Assembly: GCA_964016885.1 (NCBI GenBank)
Contig: OZ024740.1
Span: forward strand, 320,416,001 to 320,480,000
Reading direction: 5' to 3'
Origin: Eledone cirrhosa
Lineage: Eukaryota
DNA length: 64,000 nt
Below, piece after piece: positions 331 through 56,727 of the stretch. The notes under the pieces were generated by a model that did not search any database, had not been told where the DNA came from, and saw only the letters and a program-made list of their open reading frames with translations. The translations under genes were made by a program, and so were the position numbers. Every line of letters begins with the position of its first letter. Position 1 is the stretch's first letter.

Positions 331-1871
331 TTGTACTTGTGCGTGTGTATAAGTGAACAAAGAAATCGTTTAGTGTAACATACGTTTATTTGGTAAGGGA
401 CAATTCGGTAAGAGTCCTCCTCACAAACCGGGATTGCTCCTTGATTTCTTTCTGTTTAATAGTCTGAAGATGTGTCTCACGCTTCAGTTCAGTTAAATCT
501 AGCTGTGCAATTGTTAGTGTACAATATTTCCATGACGCAATCAAATGTGAGCGTGACTGTTACTGCAACCGTATTTAGCCCAATAAACGGATGTTACACT
601 AAATGATTTCTTTATTTATTTATACATAAATATATACATACCTATAGATATTTGTCTTCTTTACTCTCATTATTTTCGTTTTTTTACTACTGAATACCTT
701 TTATTTTGTGTGTCTTTCCTTTGTGATCCTGTCTCTATTTTTTGTACTCCTGAAGAAGGGCTGTAGCCCGACACATCGAACTTTCTTTCCCCTTTTCCAT
801 ATAAGGCGTGACATTAATAAGACATTTGTATCTTTGTTTTGTCGTTTCCTTGAACTATATAGATATAAATATCCGTATGTGGTTGACGGCTGAGAGAAAG
901 GAGTACTCAATACCGATGTAGAGTTTTAATATTTATTTTATTAAGGCCGAATAGTGAGTCTTGTTACTCTGGAGTTTTCTTTGTGATAAACAGGCGAAAT
1001 TTCAGAGTAACAAGACTTACTATTCAGTCTTAATAAAATGAATATATATATATATATATATATATATATATATATATATATATATATATATATATATATA
1101 TATATATATATATATAGAGAGAGAGAGAGAGAGAGAGAGAGAGAGAGAGAGAGAGAGAGGGGGAGAATAAGGAAAAGTGAAGTAGTTTCAGATGTTCAAG
1201 TCCTTTAATCATAATGCTGTGATATATATTTCAATGGCGACAGTGGCCACACTGTTCCGTGCGCCAGTGCTGCGACATCGTCAGACAGCTTGTTACATAA
1301 TAAGGTTATGTTTCCGAGGCAATCCAAATTGAATCGACAGGGGAACGGACGAAGTGTGTGCTCTTGGGTTCTTCATCCGCTCCCTTGTGAGTACCAATTC
1401 ACCCCCACCGGTCTGCGCAGGCGCAAATCCGAAGGAAGTTGAGCATTAGCTACCGCAGAGTTCAACGAAATTCGCCTAGGCAGTTCCCCCTCACAGCATT
1501 ATTATTAAAGGACTTGAACATCTGAAACTACTTCGCTTTTCCTTATTCGATATTTACTCCGTCACTCCTATGTGGAATAAGTGCGTTGAGTGCTTGAATT
1601 GAATTGCATCAATATTTACCTTAAGTATATATATATATATATATATAGTGTGTGTGTAGGTAGTACGGTGAAATACTGGTGTTGGTACCAAATCAAGCAC
1701 TCTATGCACAGGCAGAGTGTATATAATAGAAAAAACGAGGAAGTTTCGTTTACATATGAAAAATATTTATTGCGTATCGACCTATTACGCGCGTTTCGCA
1801 GAGGATATATATATATATATATATATATATATATATATATATATATATATATATATATATATATATATATA

Positions 1872-2082
1872 TATTTATTAAAATAACAGATTAAAGTTTA
1901 AGCAAAGAATCGCTGCTTTCACCCTTAACGGGATCCCGTTAAGGGTGAAAGCAGCGATTCTTTGCTTAAACTTTAATCTGTTATTTTAATAAATATTTGC
2001 TCTACGGTTCTTATATATTTGATATATATTTTCCTTATCGAGCCCTCTTTGGATTTTAGTCTTCAATTTTATTATTATTACT
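1872..2082. mobile_element. Fold-back PLE pLTR-like element, family F1 (other copies 15426-15468, 23153-23385, 61348-61410)
   Basis: Perfect palindrome centred on GGGATCCC (1930-1937) and flanked by (TA)n. The 23153 copy shows that the apex falls in a hammerhead core, CTGAAGA-TCCC-gttaa-GGGT-GAAA. Confidence 0.75.
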
Positions 2083-2374
2083 ATATATATATATATATAT
2101 ATATATATATATATATATATATATATAAATATATACGATATTAAACAAATGGAAACTATATAACCCAACAATTTTAAATAAAACTTTTGCATATAAATAT
2201 ATATATATATATAAATATATATATATATATATATATATACATACGTATATATGCGTATATATATATATATATATATATATATATATATATATATATATAT
2301 ATATATATATATATACAATATATTAATAAACACAATATATAAATAAATGGAAACTATATTTATAAAACCATATT

Positions 2375-2440
2375 TATTTTATTATACATATTTGAAGGGC
2401 AACCAAGGCAAATTATGGTGCGCTTTCATCAGATAAAATA
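2375..2440 (-). ncRNA. Degenerate hammerhead ribozyme (GAAA changed to CAAA), family F2
   Basis: The minus strand reads TATTTTAT-CTGATGA-stem II-CAAA-TATGTATA-ATAAAATA, homologous to the intact copy at 15218. Confidence 0.6.
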
Positions 2441-2477
2441 CATATAAATATATATATACGTGTGTGTGTGTGTGTAA

Positions 2478-3184
2478 TAGTAGAACACTGGTGGGTTATA
2501 TCCGTAGTAGTAGTGCACTTAGTCCATGGGACGAGTTTGGTAGGAGTAGTTCCACAACAGTTAGTTCACCATTTCCGAGAACAATTGTTTCACCTTCTTC
2601 GGATCATCAGCTCGGTTTACATGAGGTGTAAGGAAAAGGAAAAATAATTGTACGCATGTGCAGAAACGCTCACTTCCGAAAGGGGAGGTTAACCCACGTT
2701 AGATCGGTGCGAGGAAGATAACTGTGGATACTCAGAAAAATGATAGATTATAATTATTCTTGTTATTCAGTTCAGAATATTATAGATTGTTCATGTTAGT
2801 CAGTCTGGTGTTTCCAGACGTGCGGACAGCGCGAGAAAAGTTAATTCCTCGAATTTAGACAAGCGCTATGATGCAATCTACTCGGGATGTTGATTCTTTT
2901 TTTCAATGCACAGCCCACGAGATGTATTCCCATTTCCATATGTCTTAGATTTAGTAATAACTTTCCATTGAATAAAGTAATCCACGCCTGTGTCCTTGAC
3001 GTGGCTCGCGAGCTTCGTGGACCATCGTTTGTCCGGGTATTTGAAGGTCGCCAGATGATTCAGGCAGCGTTCTTTAAACTTAAATTTACGAAGTTGTGGT
3101 CACTTCTAACCGACCAAATCAACAAAAGGTCAAATCCTATATAGGTATGGCGGAGGCCCGGTTTAAAAATCGCTTCCTGAATCT
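2478..3184 (-). mobile_element. Penelope-like (Neptune-type) element 3' fragment: GIY-YIG C-terminus plus pLTR with hammerhead, with an inverted 5' segment
   Basis: The minus strand at about 3080-2820 translates as FKERCLNHLATFKYPDKRWSTKLASHVKDTGVDYFIQWKVITKSKTY...GLCIEKK...CLNSRN*LFSRCPH. The plus strand at 3085-3183 translates as IYEVVVTSNRPNQQKVKSYIGMAEARFKNRFLN. Confidence 0.85.
2575..2615 (-). ncRNA. Minimal type I hammerhead ribozyme
   Basis: CCGAG-CTGATGA-TCCgaagaaGGT-GAAA-CAATTG-TT-CTCGG. Stem I is CCGAG/CTCGG and stem III is palindromic. Confidence 0.8.
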
Positions 3185-54034: not shown

Positions 54035-54070
54035 TCTTCTGATGAAAGACTAGCGTCCGAAACGTTAAGA
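54035..54070 (+). ncRNA. Ultra-minimal hammerhead (36 nt, loopless stem III)
   Basis: TCTT-CTGATGA-aaGAC-tagc-GTCc-GAAAC-GTT-AAGA. Confidence 0.78.
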
Positions 54071-54211
54071 CCCTCTTCCTGCTATATCAAGCGTTAACCT
54101 AATATATCCCTTCCATATACTGTACCGATTGTGTTGTTATTTCTGTTTGCCTTTTACACATATATATATATATATATATATATATATATATATATATATA
54201 TATATATATAT

Positions 54212-54412
54212 AAATTAGAAATAAAAGCTTTCACTATATTTTTTTACTATAGAATTTTAACCTAATAGTAGGGTTTAGAACCCTCTAAGTAATGGGAAAA
54301 GATGTGTATTGACGTACTCATCTTTTTCCATTTCTTAGAGGGTTCTAAACCCTACTATCAGGCTAAAATTACTTTAGTAAAAAAATATGGCGAAAGCTTC
54401 TATTTCTAATTT
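54212..54412. repeat. Diverged palindrome between (TA)n tracts
   Basis: Arms of about 95 bp with multiple mismatches around an apex at about 54311. Confidence 0.85.
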
Positions 54413-54494
54413 CAAACTCCCTCGCTGTTTCAAAAACATACTTATTTGTCATGTACATATATATATATATATATATATATATATATATACACAC

Positions 54495-54823
54495 AGTCTA
54501 TCCCCGGCATTCGCGGTCCCGGTTATTCGCGTAATTTTCATTAGAACCTAATTAATAACTGTTCGCGGAAACTACCGCATATTCGCAAAATTGTAACTAT
54601 CTTCTGCGATTTTTTATGGCTTTTTTATGCTAAATTATTAATAACAATATACCGTATTTTCCGGTCTATTGGACGACCCTTCGCATAAGACGCTACCTCT
54701 TTTTTCCATTAAATTATACGTTATATTTTGACGTTTATAAGCATTTTTATGGGCCACGTCCAATATTCGCAGTTTTTCACTCTTCGCAGGTGCTCTAGGA
54801 ACGCGAATACCAGGGGACAACTG
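54495..54823. mobile_element. Tigger/pogo-like MITE with a nested TcMar-like terminus at about 54650
   Basis: TIRs CAGTCTATCCCCGGCATTCGCG / CGCGAATACCAGGGGACAACTG, and internal TACCGTATTTTCCGG. Confidence 0.62.
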
Positions 54824-56727
54824 CATATACTATATACTATACGCCCAAGTTCATACTTATATAGCCAAATATAAGACAAATATTCACTCACCAGTGGAAT
54901 AAATAAGTAATGGTTGGTGCAGATGTTTTTGCTAAAGACACATCCCTCATTTAGAAATAAGGCGAGATGTATAAAAATGCATAATTTGAGAAATCATCAT
55001 CATCATCATCAGGTCTAGCTTGCTCGGCTTTAGCTTTCAATAGTTGGATATACACTTGCGGTCGCTACTCCATACAAGTGAAAGAAGTACTCTGTATTAG
55101 AGCGGTTGTGCCTCACCGAAACATCCAACAATAGTTGATATGATCGCCTTGTCACTAGTAGTATGAACCAAATTCACAGTTACTTGATCATTGCCTTATC
55201 TACTGATACGACATCCTGCTTACCAATGTCGTCGTTTAACCCAGTCAGGATTGGTTTGACAGATTGCCTATCAAGGCCAAAGAGCTCTGTCCACCCCGGC
55301 TTTGAAATCAGAGTGATCCCTCTCCTAGACAGATTGCCGACCAAGGCTACCAAATATATATATATATATATATATGAAAATTAGAGCTAAAACTCAATTG
55401 GAACCCTGTAACTATTAAGCTCCAAGTATAAAAATACTGAGCCGATTAATAATATATAGTAAGAAACACAGTAAACCGTGTGTCTAAAATTACAAGGGTT
55501 GAAAAACCACATTTGTTTGAAATATTTAACCAAGAAGCAGACAGAATGATAAAATAAAAATATATTATTATACAAACCGCCTCAATAACCATTAAATCTC
55601 TCGGACATTTATATGTATACACTATATACACATTTATATGTATACACTATATACACATGTACACAATTTTTGGATGGCCGTTGACTCTTATGAGTTCTTC
55701 CGACCTTTGTCAGGTTTTGGTTTTGTCCTGCAGGATGTCCAAAATCACCCTCCTCACCAAGTAAACTTGATGGGGTTGCCGGTTTAGTCGCCGACAACCC
55801 GACCATACGACAGGTTGTACTGGGTTACATGTTACCAGTAGCACTCGAGAGTGGCCTGGCATATGAGAAATGTATGATGTAAATATAGGCTGCGGTATTT
55901 GTAGTCGTATGTGTCTTTCCAAAGCTTGCTTAATTAATCCCCCAACAAATACATAAGGCCAGACAAAATGTAGACTACAGTAGATTCACGACAATAGATT
56001 ACATAATATGCAGTTTAATTGGAAGGGTCATCCGATCTATTACTGAATTAAAAGGTCGCAGCGCTATACATCAGCTTTGTTTGTAAGGTCTGACAAAAGA
56101 CATGGAGGAGTTTGGCGGACTTAAAAAGACACTGTCGAAAACATGTTTCTTTCCAATAGACATTGATCGATTTCCTCGGACATGAGTGGACCACTGGACA
56201 GTAGTATACGTATGTATACACGAGGATCAGTTGAAACGTTCAGATGCTGACTATGAAGGAGCGATGCTAGAGTTGTGAAATTTAGCATGTATTAATTTCA
56301 ACTCTTCTTATTACTAACTGCATCGTTTCTTTCCAAGGACTATGTTGAAAAATAAACCTCATTTGGTCATTCCATGAGAACATCTTAGTCGGCCTATAAA
56401 ATGTTCAACCTATGAACTTTTCAGCTCCCTCCGCGCGCGCGCGCGTATGTGTATATATATATGAAAAAATTCAGGACCCCGACGACTGATCTCCGGTCGT
56501 CTCAACAGCTAGATCCGATTACCCACTCTACTACCCCAAGTATTGAGTACTCTGGTGAGTAATGATTTAACTGGTTTTTACCACCTCGGTTCTGATATAT
56601 ATATATATATATATATATATATATATATATATATATATATATATATATATATATATATATATATATATATATATATACATATATATATATATATATATAT
56701 ATGTATGTATTTATTATATACATATGT

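Follow-up and report, generated by a model that had tools for sequence, protein, structure and literature searches.

The window analysed here is a 64-kb stretch of the 3.0-Gb, microsatellite-rich genome of Eledone cirrhosa (contig OZ024740.1, positions 320,416,001 to 320,480,000), and it contains copies of several families of Penelope-like elements (PLEs) that can be assigned to the Hydra clade. These families share a small bulged hairpin which occurs twice per element, and each of the two hairpins (T1 and T2) lies a few nucleotides downstream of one of two alternative 3' ends, referred to below as the short and the long end. Our interpretation, to which we give a probability of roughly two in three, is that the two hairpins position the reverse transcriptase (RT) to start copying 6-9 bases upstream of each, once per strand of a cut (TA)n target; it is drawn from the sequences of the elements and the layout of their insertions.

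The hairpin came to attention through an 8-mer, RAGYACTC or its reverse complement (GAGTRCTY on the sense strand of the elements), which an initial annotation of this DNA had described as a family-independent motif lying about 30-60 nt from the ends of otherwise unrelated islands. All 12 of the exact coordinates given there match the 8-mer or its reverse complement, and the three variants, at 3846, 19107 and 38287, are present as described. When the window is searched for the 8-mer, 19 strand hits are obtained at 15 sites, compared to an expected 4.80 +/- 2.26, and a count of at least 19 is reached in none of 100 shuffles. Three of the exact sites are additional to the original list: 11026, which is a decayed family copy, 39568, which is within an L1/Tx1-like open reading frame (ORF) far from TA runs, and 55085, which is 221 nt from a TA run. 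A repeat search of the window gave output dominated by microsatellites.

The position of the motif was evaluated relative to the microsatellite junctions. Read on the sense strand of the element, the 12 exact sites of the original list fall 30-58 nt before a run of (TA)3 or more, although the run downstream of the 901 site is degenerate only. Reading outward from (TA)n junctions in the window gives 10 RAGYACTC hits at 30-59 nt among 138 junction sides, while the same positional test at CA, GA and AAT junctions shows no peak, a pattern which reflects an insertion preference for (TA)n. A first set of 400 kb from elsewhere in the genome shows a weaker peak (9 hits at 30-69 nt among 554 sides), and in a second, blind set of 400 kb, 29 of 54 plain GAGTRCTY sense-strand hits fall 30-69 nt before a TA run; the first hold-out (loci L021-L060) had been inspected before the hairpin descriptor used below was fixed, and the second set was fetched afterwards. 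Enrichment over background is borne out by the window shuffles, and positional enrichment by the peak at TA junctions and by 400 kb of unseen DNA. The claim that the motif lies downstream of a hammerhead ribozyme also holds where a CTGANGA core is found upstream in the same island, which is the case at 7 of the 15 listed sites (9860, 15351, 18011, 19107, 20413, 22658 and 52802); no such core was found upstream in the island for the other eight.

The 8-mer is the 3' side of a hairpin which consists, in order, of RCTC, a variable upper stem, a 2-nt bulge and GAGY-RCTY. The RCTC arm upstream of the motif pairs with GAGY to form the lower stem, and an upper stem of varying sequence follows, separated from the lower one by two bases left unpaired on the 3' side (TT, TC or TA as a rule). 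A shared cis signal of the kind first proposed is supported, but its conserved unit is this bulged hairpin rather than the 8-mer. Covariation was examined in 21 hairpins picked by eye, with F8 T1, which the pattern missed, left uncounted. Loops in this set measure 8-103 nt. In the 2-nt bulge register Watson-Crick pairing is found at the first, second and third upper positions in 19/21, 14/20 and 14/19 cases, and the upper-pair total is 48/63, compared to 22.3 +/- 3.9 with shuffled partners; other registers give at most 9/21. The first upper pair is U-A in 11 hairpins and C-G in 8, and the outer lower pair is A-U in 12 and G-C in 8. The pairs therefore covary, and they do so across families whose ORF starts are 32-52% identical. 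In the blind set the same register gives 19, 20 and 16 of 24 pairs at positions 1-3.

Searching the window with a strict descriptor of the hairpin, which misses the 1-nt-bulge form found in family F2, yields 15 hits; a TA run follows at 20-80 nt in 12 of these (0.1 in shuffles). The corresponding figures are 18 of 22 hits in the first hold-out and 24 of 27 in the blind DNA, where the shuffle mean is 0.33 and the maximum 2. A loose descriptor does not separate from shuffles overall (60 hits versus 44-57). A MAFFT alignment of 16 hairpins placed the arms out of register.

The identity of the elements follows from the copies that extend into coding sequence. The island at 2476 continues into a decayed GIY-YIG endonuclease (EN) C-terminus at 2881..3135 on the minus strand, a remnant of family F2 which sets the sense strand and for which a first look through the genome gave 28,635 candidates; nothing useful came from scanning this EN piece against Pfam. 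Longer F2 copies carry RWR, DKT, a CxCX5C linker, CxxC and CxH and have no CCHH, matching the Hydra-clade features of RW[KR], DKT, a CxCX5C linker and CxxC with CxH in the absence of CCHH (PMC8557442; this and the other papers cited here are represented by excerpts). The sense order in F2 is ORF, 3' untranslated region (UTR), hammerhead, motif and (TA)n. Seven window families (F1, F2, F5, F6, F11, F12 and C3) are tied to Hydra-type ORF starts, and a comparison of six of them over up to 200 aa puts the identity of their N-terminal proteins at 32-52%. A single ORF in which the RT is followed by a C-terminal GIY-YIG domain is seen in F2 pieces and in an 814-aa ORF of F5. RW[KR] occurs in F1, F2, F5, F11, F12 and C3 (F6 has RW followed by C), DKT in F1, F2, F5, F11 and F12, and the CxCX5C linker with CxxC and CxH near the EN end, again lacking CCHH, in F2 and F5 sequences. 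Judged by these motifs and by a visible likeness to Hydra-1_Obim, all seven ORF-linked families are classed as Hydra-clade PLEs. The islands are accordingly not unrelated, and the signal is not independent of family but shared within a clade. F4, F10 and the islands at 901 and 3846 have no ORF link. Candidate hammerhead cores were recognized by pattern in F2, F3, F5, F6/F7, F11, F12 and C3; no CTGANGA core was seen in F1 junction copies, and no Rfam hammerhead appears among the matches listed (150 of 190).

The unit of family F3 measures about 1376 nt and includes both hairpins as well as a hammerhead core with a long stem II, and its body has 685 first-look candidates in the genome. Across 20 loci it has no match to a Hydra or other PLE protein, save one 22-aa hit at a locus edge, and it is likely a non-autonomous passenger (window 1165-1625; L241-L248 and L257-L268). 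In two other PLE types in this genome the motif is seen in 0/11 3' regions, a control which is small and in which several regions may be interrupted or represent short ends. When the supplement of PMC8557442 was searched for four exact 8-mers, 0/7 of the passages shown, which come from Naiad and Chlamys consensi, resembled a terminal hairpin.

The relation of the hairpins to the element ends is the central observation. Copies of F2 chosen by their EN end at two places about 67 nt apart, and tandem junctions between a pseudo-long terminal repeat (pLTR) and the ORF reveal the second hairpin, T2, with T1 and T2 both lying between the hammerhead and the start codon. Ends are bimodal in F1 (14 at -28 and 26 at +52, with hairpin arms at -20 and +58) and in F2 (26 at -24/-22 and 25 at +44, with arms at -16 and +52); in the end counts the references for F11, F3, F4, F5, F6, F7, F901, C3 and F8 held TA runs that generated spurious bins, which were ignored. 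The T1 arm begins 6-8 nt past the short end in F1 and F2 and about 7-9 nt past it in F5, F6, F7, F8, F11 and the 901 copy, and is more scattered in C3 and F12. The T2 arm follows the long end by 6 nt in F1, F3, C3, F11 and F12, by 8 nt in F2 and F6, and by 7-9 nt in F5. A T2 beyond the long end was forecast before the pattern search in F1, F3, C3 and F6; the searches past the long end recovered a 6-8 nt A/T spacer followed by GCTC in most of the listed F1 and C3 matches, in 21/22 F3 matches and in 2/6 F6 matches, and the sequences in question close as a second hairpin. T2 was found in F2, F11, F12 and F5 as well. The spacer that separates an end from its hairpin is rich in A and T, and part of it is TA-like.

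The one-sided "tail" of these elements is the interval from T1 to T2. The 30-60 nt spacing between motif and element end is real, but what it measures is how far T1 lies from the site immediately preceding T2, so that it derives from the spacing to the second hairpin. In the same way, what had been taken for one signal near one junction occurs twice per element, each hairpin being downstream of one 3' end, and the statement that the motif is confined to the longer arm agrees with where it lies: in the tail, past the short 3' end and before the long one. The distance from the end of T2 to the ATG varies among families from 18 to 61 nt, while that from end to hairpin is fixed at 6-9 nt, which indicates that the hairpins are placed with respect to the ends rather than to the ATG. 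A coding explanation of the motif was ruled out by F2, in which the ATG is about 165 nt past the long end. Among 30 full-length F2 copies, L118 and L120 have 5' ends at the short site and L119 at the long site, beside (TA)n.

Insertions in which two arms of the same family are joined head to head combine the two kinds of end. Of 77 such end pairs, 74 are long with short, three are short with short, and none is long with long. In unselected DNA (the window and both random sets) 26/26 pairs are mixed, two of them sharing an end, and the ends as a whole divide 61:58 into long and short, with 26 further ends that fit neither class. The reach of the arms toward the 5' side was resolved in 37 of 51 insertions examined: the short arm extends further in 12, the long arm in 4, and the two are similar, and often joined at palindromes, in 21. 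Either arm can therefore be the longer in 5' reach, and in three cases (L064, L094 and L054) the short arm is ahead by 0.7-1.2 kb. Where the short arm outreaches the long one, it cannot have arisen by fold-back from a single cDNA, and two priming events are the simpler account.

A mechanism can be proposed on this basis. The hairpins would act in a sense read-through RNA that contains the pLTR, T1 and T2, and the ORF protein, perhaps as a dimer, may bind both of them. The EN would cut both strands of (TA)n, and at each target 3' end synthesis would start on the template 6-9 nt upstream of a hairpin, the A/T-rich spacer possibly aligning in part with the nicked TA primer in the manner of the telomerase alignment region. 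The strand primed at T2 would copy through T1 and so carry the tail, with T1 present in T2-primed arms only, and the two cDNAs would presumably be joined head to head at microhomologies or palindromes. The more extended proposal, which we consider about as probable as its negation, is one of programmed twin priming: an RT dimer seated on the two repeated hairpins would make one cDNA per strand of the cut TA repeat, the one-sided tail and the head-to-head layout would be the normal product of every insertion, and the hairpin with its TA-like spacer would be the counterpart of the telomerase boundary and alignment elements. Of the roles initially suggested for the signal, recognition by the RT or initiation has support from the hairpin's position, covariation and retention in F3, in which no ORF was detected, and a pLTR promoter appears disfavoured. 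The mechanism is in keeping with the in vitro behaviour of a Poseidon PLE, since the Poseidon protein cut and extended both target strands, used two start sites that bound the tail and needed RNA 3' of them (PMC11167929).

A number of observations weigh against this interpretation. Some of the 77 end pairs share an end or stem from loci selected for one end, the 21 hairpins were chosen by eye, and the families share descent. The hairpins are weak on their own: among 10 that were folded, z ranges from -0.3 to -2.7, an energy which is by itself unremarkable, and the minimum-energy fold gives the 2-nt bulge in 6/10, a 1-nt bulge in one and no bulge in three. F2 T1 has a 1-nt bulge, F2 T2 requires an 89-nt loop and carries one lower-stem mismatch, and F5 T2 has neither the upper stem nor GAG; the last, seen at L309-L328 and L335-L340, is GCAC/GTGC, a double change from U-A to A-U with both sides swapped, and an 8-mer search would overlook it. 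The spacer matches (TA)3 in part only, and the F3 long end has no exact microhomology. Finally, at upper pairs 2-3 G-U and A-C number 5 to 4, and with such near parity the pairs are silent on the strand and on whether they form in RNA or in single-stranded DNA. This strand ambiguity leaves room for the main rival to priming, in which the hairpins guide cutting instead: the GIY-YIG endonuclease would recognize them in cDNA or in an RNA-DNA intermediate and trim the ends 6-9 nt upstream. We regard this as unlikely, though it has points in its favour, namely that the tail has been suggested to arise by EN-mediated resolution (PMC8557442), that recognition by the D. virilis EN depended on the tail (PMC11167929), and that some full-length F2 copies begin at the short sites (L118, L120) or the long site (L119). 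Against it, both tail boundaries were mapped as RT start sites in vitro (PMC11167929), loops of 8-103 nt speak against recognition of double-stranded DNA, and the long end would require that T2 be copied and then removed in every insertion.

The remaining alternatives have a much smaller chance of being correct. Priming once at the long site, followed by fold-back synthesis on the cDNA that halts before T1 and leaves the short arm, would account for the pairing of one long with one short end, would suit the 21/37 insertions with arms of similar reach, many of them joined at palindromes, and has a precedent in proposed self-priming (PMC3846280); a copy of the long-arm cDNA cannot, however, extend further 5' than its template, and fold-back is refuted for the 12 insertions in which the short arm does so, unless the polymerase jumps back to the RNA. 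We consider it improbable, and to much the same degree the possibility that the hairpins work within the 5' UTR as promoter or translation-control elements, their tie to the ends being secondary. Both hairpins do lie 5' of the ATG in tandem copies, and internal promoters are present in PLE pLTRs (PMC8557442), but the distance to the end is fixed where that to the ATG is not, F3 keeps both hairpins although no ORF was detected in it, and covarying base pairs are not expected of a DNA promoter. The least credible explanation, with hardly any probability left to it, is that the hairpins are functionless residual homology of one old family. The ORF-linked families do all belong to one clade, but their N-terminal proteins have diverged to the extent given above, the hairpin appears in three other phyla, and the core columns of the hairpin have an information content of 1.5-2 bits, compared to mostly less than 0.5 downstream. 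Conservation restricted to the hairpin columns is not uniform residual homology, and together with the compensatory pairs it led to the rejection of this explanation.

Several known systems offer partial parallels. Telomerase uses an RT-bound helix beside the template as a template boundary, together with an alignment region where a short stretch of primer is aligned. In L1 twin priming, two priming events on opposite strands lead to an inversion, with one primer placed at the poly(A) tail and the other at a variable internal site, whereas here both sites are set by repeated structures and the product is head-to-head. The LINE (long interspersed nuclear element) UnaL2 presumably has a single hairpin, of which the cDNA contains a copy, and primes at the 3' tail; the present elements have two, each 3' of its start site. 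The 3' stem-loop of UnaL2 and of its short interspersed partner (SINE) is otherwise similar in being a small conserved hairpin with an internal loop that is needed for mobilisation and shared with a non-autonomous element (PMC1636434), and compensatory pairing and retention by a non-autonomous partner, F3, are both found here. Within the PLEs, Poseidon_Ac in vitro shows two internal start sites that bound the tail, an AT-rich target of which both strands are cut and extended, a need for RNA lying 3' of those start sites, and a dimer that is predicted (PMC11167929). [quoted passage not shown]

The Hydra clade of C-terminal EN-positive PLEs described in PMC8557442 has in common with these families (TA)n targets, a hammerhead (a candidate one here, recognized by its core), pLTRs, an inverted 5'-truncated copy and a one-ended tail, which measures 66-138 nt here and 30-40 there. 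Its ends are described in the excerpts with the hammerhead only, and the word "hairpin" has 0 occurrences among the matches listed. The hairpin is nevertheless present, unremarked, in coral, sea-cucumber and copepod Hydra consensi of File S7 of that paper, where it was identified by eye: it is complete at the 3' end of Hydra-2_Amil and Hydra-2_Ajap, occurs twice in the 5' UTR of Hydra-1_Ajap, has a variant form in Hydra-1_Crog with a second copy 6 nt from the 5' start that contains a compensatory C-G pair, and can be recognized in part in Hydra-1_Amil and doubtfully in Hydra-1_Obim. Published work already covers the elements, their hammerheads, the tail and internal initiation; in the excerpts of the open-access literature searched, the twin hairpin and the rule of one long and one short end are not described.

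The window sites, all T1 unless noted, are as follows. Family F1 is represented at 9693..9720 (-) in a long-plus-short head-to-head island at 9650-9787, at 20622..20649 (-) in a long-plus-short island at 20577-20746, and at 56525..56552 (+) in an island at 56463-56594. F2 has a decayed hairpin at 2513..2536 (-), downstream of a hammerhead core at about 2575-2616, and 1-nt-bulge forms at 9860..9883 (-) and 52802..52825 (-), with cores at about 9921-9961 (upstream) and 52863-52903. The F3 hairpin at 1556..1595 (+) belongs to a unit of about 1.38 kb with its long end at 1625 and an inverted short arm from about 1165. F5 occurs at 20413..20435 (-), with a core at about 20479-20501 and a long-plus-short island at 20362-20564, and as the variant GAGTACCT at 38272..38294 (+). 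F6 lies at 15332..15358 (+), with a CTGATGA core at 15226 and a long-plus-short island at 14610-15414, and F7, of the F6 group, at 22658..22688 (-), with a core at about 22758-22788 and a long-plus-short island at 22599-22983. The F11 hairpin at 19107..19191 (-) has a 73-nt insert and a long-plus-short island at 19061-19615. F12 has a hairpin with a GCTC/GAGC lower stem at 18011..18035 (-), with a core upstream at about 18082-18121, and the decayed copy at 11009..11033 (+) that contains an exact RAGYACTC. Sites absent from the initial annotation also include two of C3, at 1999..2047 (+), with a GCTC/GAGC lower stem in a head-to-head short-plus-long insertion at 1875-2081, and at 23189..23238 (-), in a long-plus-short island at 23155-23384, and one of F10 at 52010..52047 (+), the variant GAGTACGT, which, like the F4 hairpin at 1695..1718 (-), has no ORF link. 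In the hairpin at 901..924 (-) the arm is 921-924 and the motif 901-908, and the end is 39 nt downstream at the degenerate TA run; the motif variant at 3846..3853 (-) is 42 nt from a TA run, but its RCTC arm was not found and its membership is uncertain.

Other features were encountered in the course of the analysis. Loci L223-L224 hold tandem 257-nt repeats of the F1 T1-T2-ATG region only, resembling a minimal retrozyme unit, and head-to-tail Hydra arrays (L235-L238; G000:C6:49530871-49551217) repeat at about 3.54 kb in F1 and at about 6.6 kb in an F11-like case with 830-aa frames. A TA-flanked family at 9999-10831 and from 35014 onward has a CTGATGA core near its end but no hairpin motif. 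Perfect fold-backs at 1890-1977, which is the head-to-head junction of the C3 insertion, and at 52331-52422 yield spurious Rfam miRNA hits; among the matches listed (150 of 190), the Rfam scan of the window gave only sub-threshold miRNA-type hits on microsatellites and fold-backs. On the minus strand, 38864-43760 and 44859-49236 are two decayed elements, each with an ORF1-like frame and an APE-RT frame, which we take from their motifs to be L1/Tx1-like. The fragments at 4036-4964 (+), 33593-34057 (-) and 57597-58451 (-) resemble, respectively, a restriction-like-endonuclease non-LTR element, a hAT transposase and an RTE-like element.

Penelope-like elements are the sister group of the telomerase RT, and the question addressed here is how they pick the point at which copying starts and why the tail is present at one end only. 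The excerpts of the one in vitro study give two start sites but define no general signal (PMC11167929). A short motif with natural compensatory variants, a fixed ruler of 6-9 nt and young intact ORFs make the proposal directly testable, and the hairpin can serve as a marker for locating Hydra elements and their non-coding passengers. If the proposal is true, the long-unexplained one-sided tail and the head-to-head layout would be the normal outcome of each insertion.

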